Part shown: piece after piece, positions 49,955 through 54,791 of the stretch
Position numbering within the stretch: the stretch's first letter is position 1
How the letters are laid out: each line of letters starts with the position of its first letter
Made by a program: the position numbers and the translations under genes
DNA from: an uncultured Bacilli bacterium
Lineage (GTDB): Bacteria > Bacillota_I > Bacilli_A > RF39 > UBA660
Length of the DNA: 54,791 nt
Direction of reading: 5' to 3'
Assembly: GCA_944358875.1 (NCBI GenBank)
Contig: CALVRZ010000003.1
Span: 1 to 54,791, forward strand
The notes under the pieces: model-generated
The model's database searches: none
Seen by the model: only the letters and a program-made list of their open reading frames with translations
Told to the model about the DNA's origin: nothing

Positions 49955-51046
49955 TTATTTATAATTTTTTAAAACATATTTCATAATATCATCAAAACTA
50001 TTATCAATCTTACCATATACAATTTCTCTTTCAATATCCTTCATAATATCCTTAAGATAAGTCCCAGGTTCTCTTTTCAAAGCTTTCATAATATCATTAG
50101 GTTTAACAACAATATCCTTCTTACTTTCAATAGCTAAACCATTATATATGGCATTAATCTTTGTCTTATCCAAGCCTTTAATCATTGCCCCAACCGTACA
50201 CAAATAAAGACCATTTTGATAAATAACATAAGGATCATATACATCTTCTTTAAGTAAAGACCTAATCTTTTCCATCTGCCCTTTTTCTATCTTTGAGAAA
50301 GGATAAATATTATCAACATCAAGTTGGCTCCATATCCCAATAATATCATTAACCATAACCGTCCTACTAAGATTAGGAATTTCTAAATACTTATCCAACT
50401 TAAGCTCTAAAATAAGTCTTTTACCTATCTCTCTATTACTAGAAGAAAAAATCTTATTAAGCTCTTGCTTCTTCCTTTCATAAGAGAGCTTTTTCAACAA
50501 ATAACCATACTTTTTCAAATAATGCTTTGTCTTATCATCGATTGTTAATTTAAGTCTTGTCGCAAACCTAATAGCCCTCAAAATTCTAAGTGCATCTTCT
50601 TTAATCCGATATCTAGGATTACCTACCGTCTTAATTATTCTCTTATCAAGATCATCTCTAACATTAAGAAAATCTAGTACCTTACCATCCTTATCCATAC
50701 ATAAAGTATTAATCGTAAAATCTCTTCTCAGTAAGTCTTTCTTAACATTATCAATATACTTAATCTTAACAGGTTTCCGATTATCCTCATACTTAATTTC
50801 CTTTCTAAACGTCGTAATATCAAATTTATGATTCTTATAAATAACACTAACTGAACCATATTGAATACTAGAAACAGGTACAGTCTCAAAAATATCCATA
50901 ATTTCTTTTGGTTTAGCATTCGTACAAATATCGACATCCATCGTCTCTATCCCTAGTAAATAATCCCTAACATAACCACCGACAATATAAGCACTATAAC
51001 CATGATTCTCTAATATTTTAATAACTTCTAATGCAATACTTTGCAT
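49955..51046 (-). CDS. cca: CCA tRNA nucleotidyltransferase
   Basis: VGGYVRD..DVD, RRDFTIN, EDALRILRAIRF. Confidence 0.92.
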   Translation of the reverse strand: MQSIALEVIKILENHGYSAYIVGGYVRDYLLGIETMDVDICTNAKPKEIMDIFETVPVSSIQYGSVSVIYKNHKFDITTFRKEIKYEDNRKPVKIKYIDNVKKDLLRRDFTINTLCMDKDGKVLDFLNVRDDLDKRIIKTVGNPRYRIKEDALRILRAIRFATRLKLTIDDKTKHYLKKYGYLLKKLSYERKKQELNKIFSSSNREIGKRLILELKLDKYLEIPNLSRTVMVNDIIGIWSQLDVDNIYPFSKIEKGQMEKIRSLLKEDVYDPYVIYQNGLYLCTVGAMIKGLDKTKINAIYNGLAIESKKDIVVKPNDIMKALKREPGTYLKDIMKDIEREIVYGKIDNSFDDIMKYVLKNYK

Positions 51047-51062
51047 AAATCACCTCAAAATA

Positions 51063-52796
51063 TTAACGCTTTTTATTCTTAATTTCATCCCTTATCATAT
51101 CAATAAATTCTGATATACTAACTGTCGTTGTCTTCTCTTCTCCATGTTTACGATAACTAACTGTATCATTATCTCTTTCCTTATCCCCCAAGACTAACGT
51201 ATAAGGATTTTTCTTTGTTTGACTTTCTCTCATCTTATAACCAAGCTTTTCATCTCTACTATCAACTTGAACTCTAATATCATATTCCTTTAACATTTCA
51301 CTAACCTTATTAGCATATTCCAAATGATACTCATTATTAACAGGAATAATATTAATTTGAACAGGACTTAACCATAGTGGAAAAGCACCTCCATAATGTT
51401 CAATCAAAATACCAATAAATCTTTCAATTGAACCATAGATAACTCTATGTAACATAACCGGTCTTTTCTTAGAACCATCAGAATCAATATAAGTAAGATC
51501 AAATCTTTCCGGTAAATTCATATCAAGTTGAATAGTACCACATTGCCATACTCTACCTAAAGAATCTTTAATATGAAAGTCTAATTTAGGTCCATAGAAT
51601 GCACCATCACCCGGATTAATCTTACAATCATGTCCTGCCTTATGACAAGCATCTTCCAAAGCCTTCTCCGACTTATCCCATATCGCAATATCTCCAATAT
51701 ACTTTTCTTCAGGTCTAGTTGATAATTCAATATCATAAGTAAGACCAAAAATACCATACATTCTATCAATAAAATTAATTAAACGAATAACTTCACTTTC
51801 AATTTGATCTTCTCTCATAAAAATATGGGCATCATCTTGCGTAAAAGTTCTTACTCTAAATAAACCATTTAAAGCCCCACTTGCTTCATGACGATGAACT
51901 TGACCAAGTTCCCCAATGCGAAGTGGTAAGTCCTTATAAGAATGAAGACCATTCTTATAAACTAACATGCCACCTGGACAATTCATTGGCTTAATCGCAA
52001 AAGTCTTATCATCAATTTCACTTGTATACATATTTTCTCTATAATTGTACCAATGACCAGATAATTCCCATAGATCCTTGTTAAGCATAATAGGGGTTTT
52101 AACGAACAAATAACCTTCTTTTGTATGTTCCTTATACCAAAAGTTTTCAAGTTCATTTCTTAAAATCATACCCTTAGGTAAGAAGAAAGGAAAACCAGGA
52201 CCATACTCACTAATCATAAATAAATCAAGTTCCTTACCTAATTTCTTATGATCCCTTTTCTTAGCTTCTTCTAAGAAATCAAGATGTTCTTTAAGTTCCT
52301 CTTCCGTAGGAAAACAAACACCATAAATACGTTGTAACATCTTGTTATTAGCATCTCCCTTAAAATAAGCACCACTTACTTTAAGTAACTTAAAATTCTT
52401 AAGTAATTTAACATTATCCACATGAGGACCACGACATAAATCCGTAAAATCACCTTGTGAATAACAACTAATAACCTCATCGTCCATTCTTTCAATTAAA
52501 TCAATCTTATATGGATCATCTTTAAACATCTCTAAAGCTTCTTCTTTAGATATCTCATGACGAATAATCTTCTTACCATCCTTAGCAAGTTTCTTCATTT
52601 CTTTTTCGATCATCGGTAAGTCTTCTTCCGTCAAAGTCTTATCTCCTAAATCAATATCATAATAAAACCCTTCTTCAATAACGGGACCAACCCAGAATTT
52701 AGCATTTGGATATAAATGCTTAACAGCCTGTGCCATCAAATGAGCACAACTATGATTAAGTACACTAAGTTTACTATCTTCTTTAATATTTATCAT
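51063..52796 (-). CDS. thrS: Threonine-tRNA ligase (short form lacking the TGS domain)
   Basis: HSCAH, DLCRGPH, KPMNCP, GAFYGPK, GSIERF. Confidence 0.98.
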   Translation of the reverse strand: MINIKEDSKLSVLNHSCAHLMAQAVKHLYPNAKFWVGPVIEEGFYYDIDLGDKTLTEEDLPMIEKEMKKLAKDGKKIIRHEISKEEALEMFKDDPYKIDLIERMDDEVISCYSQGDFTDLCRGPHVDNVKLLKNFKLLKVSGAYFKGDANNKMLQRIYGVCFPTEEELKEHLDFLEEAKKRDHKKLGKELDLFMISEYGPGFPFFLPKGMILRNELENFWYKEHTKEGYLFVKTPIMLNKDLWELSGHWYNYRENMYTSEIDDKTFAIKPMNCPGGMLVYKNGLHSYKDLPLRIGELGQVHRHEASGALNGLFRVRTFTQDDAHIFMREDQIESEVIRLINFIDRMYGIFGLTYDIELSTRPEEKYIGDIAIWDKSEKALEDACHKAGHDCKINPGDGAFYGPKLDFHIKDSLGRVWQCGTIQLDMNLPERFDLTYIDSDGSKKRPVMLHRVIYGSIERFIGILIEHYGGAFPLWLSPVQINIIPVNNEYHLEYANKVSEMLKEYDIRVQVDSRDEKLGYKMRESQTKKNPYTLVLGDKERDNDTVSYRKHGEEKTTTVSISEFIDMIRDEIKNKKR

Positions 52797-52805
52797 TAAA
52801 ATCAC

Positions 52806-53054
52806 TCACTTTCTAAAATATTTTTCATGTCTTCTATTCTTAACATTACGTCTAAACTTTTTAACTCCTACGCCACAGGAAATTTTACGGTAAACAGCAT
52901 CATCATTTATTTTATCCTGAATTATACCACATACAACCGAGTAAGCAGGTAAGCCACTTACCTTTTCTTTTAAATCAAGTAATTCTGAGTAAGACATATT
53001 ATCGATGTCTACACTAACATCATTACCATTTTCATCAACATATCTAACAAACAT
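52806..53054 (-). CDS. Small hypothetical protein
   Basis: RBS GGAGG; basic tail; abuts thrS. Confidence 0.65.
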   Translation of the reverse strand: MFVRYVDENGNDVSVDIDNMSYSELLDLKEKVSGLPAYSVVCGIIQDKINDDAVYRKISCGVGVKKFRRNVKNRRHEKYFRK

Positions 53055-53056
53055 CT

Positions 53057-53956
53057 TTAACCCTCCTTACTAATTAATTTATTGTAATTAACTTTTAGTA
53101 ATAAATCATATCTCATTTTAATTATTTTTTTATAAAATTCTTTCCTAATATCTGATATATACAAAGTATTATCGATAATTTCATTTATTACATTTAAGTT
53201 AATTCTAGGAAAAACTCTAAGTAATGCCTTATTACAATCAACATTATCCAAACTAGATATAAAATCATAGTAATTAATTTTCTTATCATCAATCTTAAGT
53301 GCCGAATTAGGAAAAACAAACACTCTAGCATTCATTTCTTCTTCATCATCGATAATTTTTTTCATTCTTTCATCCGTAAGCTGTGGATATAAAGAAGAAG
53401 CACAATCATAAATAGGAGCTATCTCAACTTCTTTTAATCTTTCATTAATCAAAAAGCCCCAATTGCCATTGTGTCGATTAAAATTACCTACTAAAGTATC
53501 AGCAATAAACATATCCCAAAAAAAATCTTTTAAATAGTTAACATCACATATTTGTTGACTCTCAATTGTTTGAATTACTTCTTCAAGTTCCGTACCATAA
53601 CCATTCTTAAAACTTTCTATCTGACTATTTTTAAGCTCCGCGAATTGTCTTAATACCACACCAAGAGAGGTAAAATCTTTGCAAGCAACAACTACTTTCG
53701 TATTGCCATTTAAATTATATGTCCCAAGTATTGTATCTTGTACTTTAAATCCTAATGACTTAATAATTTTACATGCTACATATTCTGATATACAATTATT
53801 AGCATAAGTTTGTTCAGCATCATTATCATTTAAACTAGGAAACTTTAACATATAATCTTGATTATTATAAACAATACAAATTTTACTACAATTCTTACCA
53901 CCATAGTATTTAAATTTATTAATTTCACAATTAGTAAAATCGATCATACCAAACAC
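53057..53956 (-). CDS. HipA/CtkA-like kinase with catalytic Asp replaced by Asn
   Basis: YMLKFP, SEYVAC, DTLVGNFNRHNGNWG, APIYDCASSL. Confidence 0.85.
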   Translation of the reverse strand: MFGMIDFTNCEINKFKYYGGKNCSKICIVYNNQDYMLKFPSLNDNDAEQTYANNCISEYVACKIIKSLGFKVQDTILGTYNLNGNTKVVVACKDFTSLGVVLRQFAELKNSQIESFKNGYGTELEEVIQTIESQQICDVNYLKDFFWDMFIADTLVGNFNRHNGNWGFLINERLKEVEIAPIYDCASSLYPQLTDERMKKIIDDEEEMNARVFVFPNSALKIDDKKINYYDFISSLDNVDCNKALLRVFPRINLNVINEIIDNTLYISDIRKEFYKKIIKMRYDLLLKVNYNKLISKEG

Positions 53957-53957
53957 C

Positions 53958-54188
53958 TCATTTTTTAAGTAATTCTATATTATTAATATATTTTTTATAG
54001 AAATAGTCACATTGTTCTTCCGATATATCACCATCGACAAAAGCACTGTTAACAGAACCTTGCAATTCATTAATTAAGCAATCTAAATAACTAACCTTTT
54101 TCTTTATCCCCTCTTTTAATCTATTTAAATCATATTCTAAATATTTAGGTAAACACTTCTCTAATATTTCTTCTTTATATGGTTTCAT
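53958..54188 (-). CDS. Small helical protein, putative partner/antitoxin of the kinase
   Basis: Stops 1 nt before the kinase start; first gene after the T-box terminator. Confidence 0.7.
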   Translation of the reverse strand: MKPYKEEILEKCLPKYLEYDLNRLKEGIKKKVSYLDCLINELQGSVNSAFVDGDISEEQCDYFYKKYINNIELLKK

Positions 54189-54201
54189 AATTCATCCCCC
54201 C

Positions 54202-54395
54202 AAAAAAAACACCCCTCAAAATAAGGAGTGCTAAGCACGGTACCATCCTACCTTTAACTTAATTAATATAACGGTTCTAACCGGAAATCTTTTTCAAGCT
54301 CTATTCCAAGGTAGTAACTATATAAACAATAAATAAGTTTGCACCAACCACTTACTCTCTAAATTATAAATTTATATAATCATGTCCTCTTCAAA
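54202..54395 (-). ncRNA. T-box riboswitch (Thr)
   Basis: Stem I GAAGAGGA..AGAGAG..GGTGCAA..ACTACCTTGGA (ACU or ACC specifier); antiterminator GGA-TGGTACC-GTG-CTTAG-CAC-TCC; terminator GCACTCCTT-ATTTT-GAGGGGTGT plus T run. Confidence 0.88.
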
Positions 54396-54417
54396 CATAT
54401 TTAATAAATACAACTAT

Positions 54418-54446
54418 ATTATAGTATATGCAATTCAAAATGTCAA
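54418..54446 (-). promoter_or_regulatory. Consensus sigma-A promoter for the T-box leader
   Basis: TTGACA(54446-54441)-17 bp-TATAAT(54423-54418). Confidence 0.85.
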
Positions 54447-54791
54447 TAACTTTTTGGGACTAATCGCATGGCGTCCCTCGGTATTAAATATATCTTTAAT
54501 ACTTATCTACTTTCATTACTATTTCAATCAAAAATTTAAACTGTTCGCTTGTTTTACAACAATATATTACAACAATATATATAGTATAATCGGTATTAGG
54601 AAATACTAACTGTTGAATAAAGCCGCTTAGAACAAAAAGGTAAAACAAGTTTTACCTCTCCTTGTCGTTACCTCCAAGGCTTCCTACTGCAAACAGAAAC
54701 ACTTTCTGTTATTCATAGGCATAAACTCCGATGGTCGCCACCCAATGCTGTCAAGCTAAGCAATGTCTAAAAACTGGATCTATGATTAATT

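Follow-up and report, generated by a model that had tools for sequence, protein, structure and literature searches.

Architecture of the thrS Unit

The DNA considered here is a stretch of 54,791 nucleotides (nt) from an uncultured chicken-gut bacterium of the Bacilli (GenBank assembly GCA_944358875.1, contig CALVRZ010000003.1, forward strand), the whole of which is referred to as the window. Toward its end lies the gene for threonyl-tRNA synthetase (ThrRS), thrS, and between thrS and its T-box leader, a riboswitch that reads uncharged tRNA, is a two-gene cassette encoding a 76-amino-acid (aa) protein and a HipA-like kinase. A promoter, the leader, a terminator, the 76-aa open reading frame (ORF), the kinase gene, an 82-aa ORF and thrS follow one another in this order on the minus strand (Table 1). 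The intergenic gaps from the 76-aa ORF to thrS are 10, 2 and 9 nt, and the T-run of the terminator is separated from the first ATG, that of the 76-aa ORF, by about 13–19 nt. This anatomy, including the small gaps, agrees in all features with a preliminary description of the locus. That description had also seen no internal terminator, and the T-box terminator is indeed the only minus-strand terminator-like site found in 50900-54791. Using a consensus scan, 21 promoter-like sites were counted in total, compared with 23.1 ± 4.9 in shuffled sequences, and the internal minus-strand ones score at most 9/12; as the count matches the shuffle expectation, no internal promoter-like site stands out. An aligned promoter is present at the equal place in the sister species and in most leaders of the family. 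Hereafter, G000 denotes the genome of the window and G001 that of the sister species, while L-numbers refer to loci of related genomes and P-numbers to conspecific kinase sequences.

Table 1. Coordinates of the features at and around thrS in the window.
Feature	Position	Strand	Basis or remark
Sigma-70-type promoter, TTGACA-17-TATAAT	54418..54446	-	12/12 consensus; best in 50900-54791
T-box leader, Thr specificity	54221..54404	-	RF00230; specifier ACU 54315..54313; UGGU bulge 54245..54242
T-box terminator hairpin and T-run	54201..54232	-	11-pair stem, loop of 3, then T-run (hairpin 54232..54208)
Two-gene cassette (short hipR and hipG), 1152 nt	53043..54194	-	Indel relative to sister species G001
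76-aa short HipR (antitoxin domain without helix-turn-helix (HTH))	53958..54188	-	Alignment to C-terminal half of HipR
296-aa (from ATG) HipG/CtkA-type HipA-like kinase	53057..53947	-	HipA_C; Asn at catalytic Asp, codon 157, 53479..53477
82-aa ORF, older gap passenger	52806..53054	-	Homolog in G001 gap; outside kinase module
thrS	51063..52796 (ATG start; alternative GTG at 52805)	-	TIGR00418, 748 bits
CCA-adding enzyme gene (cca)	49955..51046	-	PolyA_pol head domain and tRNA_NucTran2_2

A search with the covariance model RF00230 revealed a match over the full length of the model (positions 1–219 at 54404..54221; 78.4 bits, E 3e-16). The T-box reported previously is borne out in its extent and significance, although its score stays under the Rfam gathering score of 93; the thrS leaders of relatives score 70–101 bits. 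The specifier, ACU followed by A (54315..54312), is located in the Stem I loop, and the threonine specificity assigned to it earlier is shared by the family: when 72 thrS leaders were aligned to a profile, 70 showed ACU at the specifier position and one showed ACC, the remaining leader being cut off there. The UGGU bulge is found in all 72 family leaders and lies within GGAUGGUACCGUG in the window. Two tRNA-Thr genes were found in G000, with the anticodons GGU and CGU, and both have an A73-CCA end; as this end complements UGGU, the acceptor end of tRNA-Thr can pair with the bulge. The terminator hairpin overlaps the 3′ strand of the modelled antiterminator helix. Judged from its sequence, the leader has the features of a T-box, namely a matching specifier, a UGGN bulge and a competing intrinsic terminator. 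The thrS gene behind it is the only ThrRS gene found in G000, other matches being weak (E 2.7e-6 and 5e-4).

Insertion of a Two-gene Cassette between Leader and thrS

Comparison with the sister species revealed how the kinase pair came to lie in this unit. G001 has the same promoter, leader and terminator, followed by a 75-aa homolog of the 82-aa ORF, thrS (95% identical to that of the window) and cca, and it has no kinase pair. The DNA alignment of the two genomes runs at 88% up to window position 54195 and at 85.5% from 53042 onward, and the interval between these positions amounts to 1152 nt in G000 versus 14 nt in G001. From these breakpoints, the cassette begins just past the T-run of the terminator and reaches as far as the ribosome-binding site that serves the 82-aa ORF. 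The cassette is a clean insertion that is absent from the sister species. Inspection by eye of the cassette ends gave no clear repeat that would represent a target-site duplication, and both junctions are G-rich and resemble ribosome-binding sites.

The 82-aa ORF has a different history. It shares 59–62% identity with its homolog, which is also located between T-box and thrS, in G001; because G001 lacks the cassette, the 82-aa ORF predates it. The ORF occurs in 0/80 kinase loci and in 5 of 151 family genomes at E ≤0.01, with strong matches in only two. It is thus unrelated to the kinase module and older than the cassette, a distinction that goes beyond the preliminary description. Among the ORFs that lie between leader and thrS in the family (see below), the 82-aa family forms a seven-member cluster, whose core consists of a helix-like motif and a basic tail and whose N-terminal strands are absent from two members. 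No family was found for the 82-aa protein in Pfam or NCBIfam, and an Atlas look-up gave no usable match.

Three explanations of this ORF and its reading frame were considered and rejected. Pfam detects tRNA_SAD, tRNA-synt_2b and HGTP_anticodon in the window ThrRS and finds no TGS domain, so that the 82-aa ORF might have been a split-off TGS domain. Pfam finds no TGS in the 82-aa protein either, its core is helix-like, two members lack the N-terminal strands, and ThrRS is TGS-less throughout the family with or without a gap ORF. Read-through of a TGA codon from the 82-aa ORF into thrS, which share a frame in the window, was rejected because stop and start are 10 nt apart in G001 and the frames therefore differ there. 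Genetic code 4 was likewise rejected, as translation with table 11 already gives open frames for the genes read. Regarding the synthetase itself, the family-wide ThrRS without an N-terminal TGS corresponds to open frames of about 562–622 aa, and some frames reach 638–676 aa in other families of the class.

A HipG-type Kinase

The kinase matches the Pfam family HipA_C (PF07804) with an E value of 7.9e-10 and 39.2 bits, compared with a cut-off of 30.5, and NCBIfam YjjJ at 1.1e-4. Of 8,000 candidates from the database that were scored, about 7,700 match it at E ≤0.001. When a profile of the kinase family was compared with solved proteins, a single match was obtained, CtkA of Helicobacter pylori (3AKJ; E 6e-122), which spans profile positions 2–291 of 294 and CtkA residues 4–290. 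The motifs GNFDRHNGNWGF and IAPI[YF]DCGSCLYPQ are common to CtkA and the kinase family. The assignment of the kinase comes from the locus L070 (Epulopiscium), whose kinase shows 50.5% identity to the window kinase (E 1e-100) and whose upstream protein matches, over the 60 residues printed, the HipR of the Epulopiscium HipG in Table S1 of Gerdes, Baerentsen and Brodersen (mBio 2021, PMC8262856). Since the kinases are this similar and L070 is listed as hipRG, the window kinase is assigned to the HipG family. Table S1 of that paper gives five hipRG modules, and all five consist of a 291–314-aa kinase and a 137–147-aa HTH protein; HipG is described there as a core kinase of 279–321 aa without N-subdomain-1 (PMC8262856). 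The window kinase fits this size class with 296 aa, has no N-subdomain-1 and carries a Gly-rich loop at residues 16–22. In a limited literature collection, a search for later experimental papers on HipG or HipR retrieved none.

G000 encodes a second HipG-like kinase (G000:C29:3570-4430, corresponding to L006:1501-2364) with 44% identity, in which the catalytic Asp is kept and the Gly-rich loop is divergent. This gene has no HipR-like gene beside it, and the 76-aa ORF of the window is the only such antitoxin gene found in G000.

A Short HipR without a DNA-binding Half

In 73 of the 80 related loci, the gene just before the kinase gene encodes a domain similar to the 76-aa protein. In distant loci, the domain constitutes the C-terminal half of a 141–185-aa HTH protein, while in closer loci it is a standalone protein of 70–87 aa. 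Because it aligns to the C-terminal half of HTH-bearing HipR proteins of 137–157 aa, the 76-aa ORF corresponds to HipR without its DNA-binding half, which extends the preliminary description by identifying this ORF as the antitoxin half of HipR. A Pfam search with the 76-aa protein gave no family and no HTH. The invariant residues of the domain are E10, L17, D36 and C37. A quick tree of 75 kinases, built by maximum likelihood, places the window in a clade of 38 rows (SH-aLRT 94), all of which have a short HipR; the short form also occurs outside this main clade at least twice (L053/L072 and L051), and the upstream proteins of L063 and L065 are long and of HTH type. As far as can be read from these alignments and the tree, the short HipR is a stable form.

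In four loci (L017:5172-6008, L023:5241-5999, L031:5328-5999 and L048:5238-5999), an upstream ORF runs in frame into the short-HipR domain, and the products measure 223–278 aa. The N-terminal parts of these four products are unrelated.

Structure prediction of the complex between the 76-aa protein and the kinase yielded ipSAE values of 0.88, 0.89 and 0.88, compared with 0.00 for the best of three controls. The partner pLDDT is at least 86, and at least 80% of the contacts agree between runs. Of 157 solved complexes, 116 attained the mark applied to ipSAE, as did 2 of 215 mismatched pairs; this calibration holds only roughly here, because the complex was modelled with user-made alignments. In the modelled interface, antitoxin residues 33–48, which are the most conserved and include D36 and C37, are placed on kinase residues 156–161, i.e., the GNF-D/N-RHN catalytic loop, and further contacts involve kinase residues 116–119 and 184–191. 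With the HipR profile, solved relatives were detected by sequence for the HTH part only; since the antitoxin half has no solved relative, the score is unlikely to be a memory of a solved complex. The model supports a role of the 76-aa protein in which it would block the active site of the kinase.

State of the Kinase in the Genome and the Species

The window kinase reads GNFNRHNGN where all 72 relatives read have GNFDRHNGN, confirming the earlier remark that its catalytic Asp is missing; the Asp is also present in P0002. Relative to the conspecific consensus, the window allele carries G20C in the Gly-rich loop (also in P0021), S113F (also in P0003 and P0011), D157N and C185S, together with the common I195M polymorphism, and it keeps the Mg-binding D181. 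D157N and C185S are unique to the window allele among 52 conspecific variants. In this copy, therefore, the core motifs that are intact in HipG are altered, with Cys at G20 and Asn at D157. Asn157 is absent from the sequencing runs that cover the site (X3, X4 and X16), of which X3 and X4 have identical figures, may be one data set filed twice and were counted as one. In other chicken-gut samples, a DNA contig of 3315 nt that is colinear with 51404-54528 contains Gly, Ser, Asp and Cys at the four sites, and RNA-library contigs likewise contain Gly, Ser, Asp and Cys at sites 20, 113, 157 and 185. The Asn allele is thus private to the sample of G000, which had not been part of the preliminary description, and the kinase is most likely dead in this genome.

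The gene is also in a relaxed state elsewhere in the species. The 52 distinct conspecific sequences contain 41 substitution types at 37 positions, and 9 of these 37 positions fall on family-invariant sites, which make up 75 of the 296 residues; this is the neutral expectation (P = 0.63). The segregating changes include N19D, G118D, D157V and D181N/A, and a one-residue insertion was found in two further sequences. The ratios of nonsynonymous to synonymous differences between the window and other samples, taken from incomplete difference lists, are 5:4 (X3) and 6:4 (X16) for the kinase, and 1:8 and 1:12 for thrS. The kinase is drifting in the species, with no visible constraint or purifying selection. 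The antitoxin gene is intact, and no differences between samples are listed for it.

It could be supposed that the Asn157 protein is a domesticated pseudokinase, kept for a noncatalytic role such as binding ThrRS or the 76-aa protein, given that the 296-aa frame is intact despite the substituted key residues and that the antitoxin gene is intact as well. Asn157 and Ser185 are, however, confined to the window allele among the 52 variants, while other samples have Asp, and the varied changes at invariant residues (N19D, G118D, D157V and D181N/A) resemble decay instead of a fixed new function. Domestication of this kind is extremely improbable.

Distribution of the Module and Its Linkage to thrS

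The kinase is patchily distributed, occurring in 5 of 41 related genomes, G000 included. The preliminary description had favored a feedback circuit aimed at ThrRS. In a circuit of this type, uncharged tRNA-Thr would induce the kinase together with ThrRS, and phosphorylation of ThrRS, or of some other factor in threonine decoding, would tune or lock in the starvation response. The position of the kinase inside the T-box–thrS unit accords with such a circuit, as do the known targets of HipA-family kinases, GltX, TrpS and LysS (HipA acts on GltX and HipT on TrpS; PMC8262856, Table 1), and in L024 another short module is located just ahead of the thrS promoter. A recurrent position of the kinase at thrS was nevertheless not found. 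L024 is the only one of 80 related loci in which thrS is near the kinase, and there the module ends at the thrS promoter; being upstream of both promoter and T-box, it is not under T-box control. The leader–thrS gap is occupied by the kinase in 1/72 family genomes, namely G000, and the sister species has no kinase. In the close clade, short modules are adjacent to polA (about nine loci), uvrB, gyrA, relA, recD2, Fic/DOC and other genes, and a scan of 80 neighbor proteins of 37 close-clade loci (L010-L044, L048 and L068) detected no other aminoacyl-tRNA synthetase (aaRS). The gap itself holds 30 clusters of ORFs in the family, as described below, and the kinase lacks purifying selection in the species and is likely dead in G000. 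A ThrRS circuit is accordingly very unlikely.

Of 33 short modules, 31 share the orientation of the upstream gene and two are divergent from it; the gap to the upstream gene is below 100 nt in 13, and four are in-frame fusions. A Fic/DOC gene lies directly after the kinase in L011, L013, L019 and L048, and a shorter ORF of the same cluster is found three genes downstream in L027. In H. pylori, the ctkA slot on the integrative and conjugative element (ICE) tfs3 is stated to hold a fic gene alternatively (PMC5536186).

The patchiness of the kinase, together with neighbors that include Fic/DOC, RhuM and AbiEi genes, is also compatible with an anti-phage abortive-infection module that is coupled to translational stress via the T-box, an explanation that overlaps with a toxin–antitoxin (TA) reading. 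The kinase matches the PADLOC candidate defense family PDC-M03A (7.2e-30); no PADLOC model was matched by the 76-aa or the 82-aa protein. PMC8262856 proposes that HipG is activated by phage through a Stl-like HipR. PDC families are, however, candidates only. Furthermore, the short HipR lacks the HTH half, there are no phage genes at the locus, the kinase is decaying, and homologs are rare in phage records (2/50,697) and plasmid records (5/72,556). An anti-phage function of the window module is therefore unlikely.

The Leader–thrS Gap as a Cargo Site

The kinase pair proved to be one case of a wider pattern. In a survey of the gap between leader and gene, thrS was located in 75 family genomes and a Thr leader in 72. 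The leader abuts thrS in 18 of the 72 (no more than 54 nt after the leader profile ends), and the gap measures 170–1397 nt in the other 54; the loci L091-L107 and L122-L189 are among these relatives. All but one of the 54 wide gaps (53/54) contain an ORF of at least 40 aa on the thrS strand. In a first pass, the ORFs fill about 0.8–1.1 of the gap in most genomes, and the median distance between the last stop and the start of thrS is 0 nt. The 61 gap ORFs fall into 30 blastp clusters, with sizes of 19, 7, 4 (dUTPase), 3 and 3 and 25 singletons. A single family of gap ORFs was rejected, as hhalign finds no relation between the 19-member and the 7-member cluster (probability 1.7%), and the 7-member profile recruits no other gap ORF at E up to 10. 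Among 58 gap ORFs of relatives, Pfam assigns dUTPase to four and nothing above the cut-off to 54; a smaller scan of seven ORFs had given one dUTPase.

Since the gap is coding in 54 of 72 genomes and its ORFs are mostly unrelated, the kinase module represents one of many passengers of the T-box unit in this lineage. The leader–thrS gap is a general cargo site in the family, which was not foreseen in the preliminary description. The 18 genomes with the leader directly before thrS indicate that the leader promoter is the ancestral thrS promoter. A literature search in the limited collection mentioned above found no paper on a TA module or a HipA-like kinase behind a T-box.

Two kinds of cargo deserve mention in their own right. 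A dUTPase gene occupies the gap in L096, L142, L164 and L178. The 19-member cluster has no Pfam family and is characterized by an N-terminal I-S-x-x-x-F-L-x-x-Y ... H motif and a G-x-x-x-x-V-x-D ... Y-x-N-P motif; an Atlas look-up of one of its proteins gave no usable match.

Expression and Interpretation

The window stretch was found in runs of 13 studies, and those with large shares of it are labelled chicken gut metagenome. Contigs of two metatranscriptome libraries span 53962-54360, across the terminator into the 76-aa ORF, as well as 53884-54201, 53301-53898 and 52429-52863, and they bridge the junctions leader/76-aa ORF, 76-aa ORF/kinase and 82-aa ORF/thrS. No contig of the X16 RNA library is listed over about 52864-53300, and X18 covers 9 of 30 bins.

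Considering the insertion, the kinase family, the antitoxin and the cargo pattern together, the locus is best interpreted as an HTH-less hipRG TA cassette of 1.15 kb, which is a T-box-driven passenger without an evident promoter of its own, placed between the terminator and the 82-aa ORF, and which is no ThrRS-specific device. We assign this interpretation a probability of about three in four. The co-regulation of the module with thrS through the T-box, as suggested in the preliminary description, is sustained by the one strong promoter, the one terminator and the tight packing. Of its two explanations for the module, the favored ThrRS feedback circuit draws next to no support from synteny (1/80 loci, 1/72 gaps and absence from the sister species), while the other, in which a selfish element has inserted into an essential operon and is sheltered there, fits the 1152-nt indel and the cargo-site pattern. 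The ThrRS feedback idea is unsupported, and the cargo-slot pattern is the more surprising by-product of the analysis.

In the mechanism that we propose, transcription would start at the single consensus promoter and stop at the T-box terminator when tRNA-Thr is charged. Uncharged tRNA-Thr would pair with the ACU specifier and the UGGU bulge and stabilize the antiterminator, allowing read-through into short hipR, hipG, the 82-aa ORF, thrS and probably cca. The module would have given up the autoregulation by DNA binding of HipR and would borrow the switch of its host instead. The antitoxin would be translated first and occlude the catalytic loop of the kinase. Where a strain keeps the kinase intact, antitoxin and kinase would both increase on starvation.

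A competing view is that the module is not co-transcribed with thrS, an unrecognized internal promoter leaving only part of the cluster under T-box control. Only a simple sigma-70 consensus scan was applied, three minus-strand 9/12 sites lie inside the cluster, and no RNA contig was seen across the kinase/82-aa ORF junction. Against separate transcription, no terminator was found and only 2–10 nt separate the genes; in G001 and 53 other genomes, the gap is filled by cargo ORFs, the last of which typically stops right at thrS (median distance 0 nt); and the leader promoter is ancestral to thrS, as judged from the 18 genomes with the leader directly before thrS. Separate transcription is thus unlikely.

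Several points weigh against the interpretation as a T-box-driven passenger with a decaying kinase. The RNA-library contigs have a depth of 3–6, may stem from DNA carry-over, and show neither strand nor ends; an internal promoter may have been overlooked by the consensus scan. Other short modules are often located 100–300 nt behind the upstream gene, and given this spacing and the divergent cases, "promoterless" holds for the window locus and not for the whole clade. The inactivity of the Asn allele is deduced from conservation in the family. The set of conspecific variants has one row per distinct sequence, and rare alleles and sequencing errors are therefore over-represented; intact alleles are found on many contigs (P0006 on 15 and P0019 on 12). 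The module next to thrS in L024 is a weak hint of a link to ThrRS, with a hand estimate of about a 1-in-20 coincidence for about two dozen contexts. Finally, ThrRS may be a substrate of the kinase by analogy: as other HipA-family kinases hit aaRSs, it is a possible HipG substrate.

A bolder extension of the TA cassette interpretation may be envisaged for strains with an intact kinase, in which uncharged tRNA-Thr would induce hipRG, hipRG would block translation, possibly via an aaRS, and the block would produce more uncharged tRNA, resulting in a self-reinforcing arrest. On a wider scale, the gap would serve throughout this family of small-genome gut bacteria as a capture slot in which genes of foreign or recent origin gain starvation-induced expression. 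We regard this extension as unlikely. With one hipRG copy under a tRNA-sensing riboswitch, the dose of the toxin should follow amino-acid starvation, and a compact 76-aa antitoxin is predicted to plug the catalytic loop of CtkA/HipG kinases. The coding gap in three quarters of the family suggests that T-box operons are landing sites for accessory genes in reduced genomes. Such a landing-site pattern would bear on the annotation of T-box regulons and on how new genes gain expression.

Neighboring Genes and Other T-box Units

Downstream of thrS, cca starts after 16 nt, no terminator-like site lies between the two genes, and the order in G001 is identical; cca is possibly part of the thrS transcription unit. 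The tRNA-maturing CCA-adding enzyme may thus come under tRNA-sensing control. At the other end of the region, the summed contig depth over window positions 54540-54791 rises several-fold to more than 20-fold in X3, X4 and X16, whereas X18 has no cover there. This contig end may be a repeated or widely conserved sequence, and Rfam gave nothing there at E up to 1. Elsewhere in G000, T-box leaders have passengers too: a 113-aa membrane-like ORF lies between another T-box and leuS (G000:C1, near 55947, plus strand), and the sole ORF behind a further T-box (G000:C28, near 17094, minus strand) encodes a 277-aa protein of unknown function.

Comparison with Known Systems

The window locus can be compared with four known systems. 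It shares with the canonical T-box–thrS arrangement a Thr T-box and terminator before the only thrS, and it differs in the 1.4 kb with three extra ORFs that separate leader and thrS. In common with hipBA and hipBST, it has the HipA_C kinase fold and motifs and an upstream antitoxin gene; in contrast, the window kinase is only distantly similar to the kinases of these systems, and there is no HipS-like or HipB-like partner.

CtkA is the sole solved relative of the window kinase, and the family profile aligns with it almost from end to end. CtkA (JHP0940, PDB 3AKJ/3AKK/3AKL) is a 325-aa protein encoded on the ICE tfs3, with a basic C-terminal tail that has been proposed as a type IV secretion signal, and homologs of about 50% identity in gut bacteria are reported to be without this tail (PMC5536186). 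The window kinase, unlike CtkA, ends at 296 aa, has no basic tail and has thrS and cca as neighbors instead of an ICE. By its length and its gene context, it is not a secreted protein of the CtkA type.

With hipRG, the locus shares the kinase family, an antitoxin gene in first position, and a 76-aa protein that corresponds to the C-terminal half of HipR. The differences are a HipR of 76 aa without an HTH, compared with 137–147 aa, a T-box leader in place of an autoregulated promoter, and Asn at the position of the catalytic Asp. Type II antitoxins normally carry their own repressor, and the autoregulation of type II TA modules has no counterpart here, the 76-aa protein having no HTH and the module lying behind the T-box terminator. 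The 38-row clade with short HipR, which has dropped the DNA-binding half, is not among the five hipRG rows of Table S1 in PMC8262856 and stands beside them as a form of hipRG of which the window copy is placed under the T-box of thrS.

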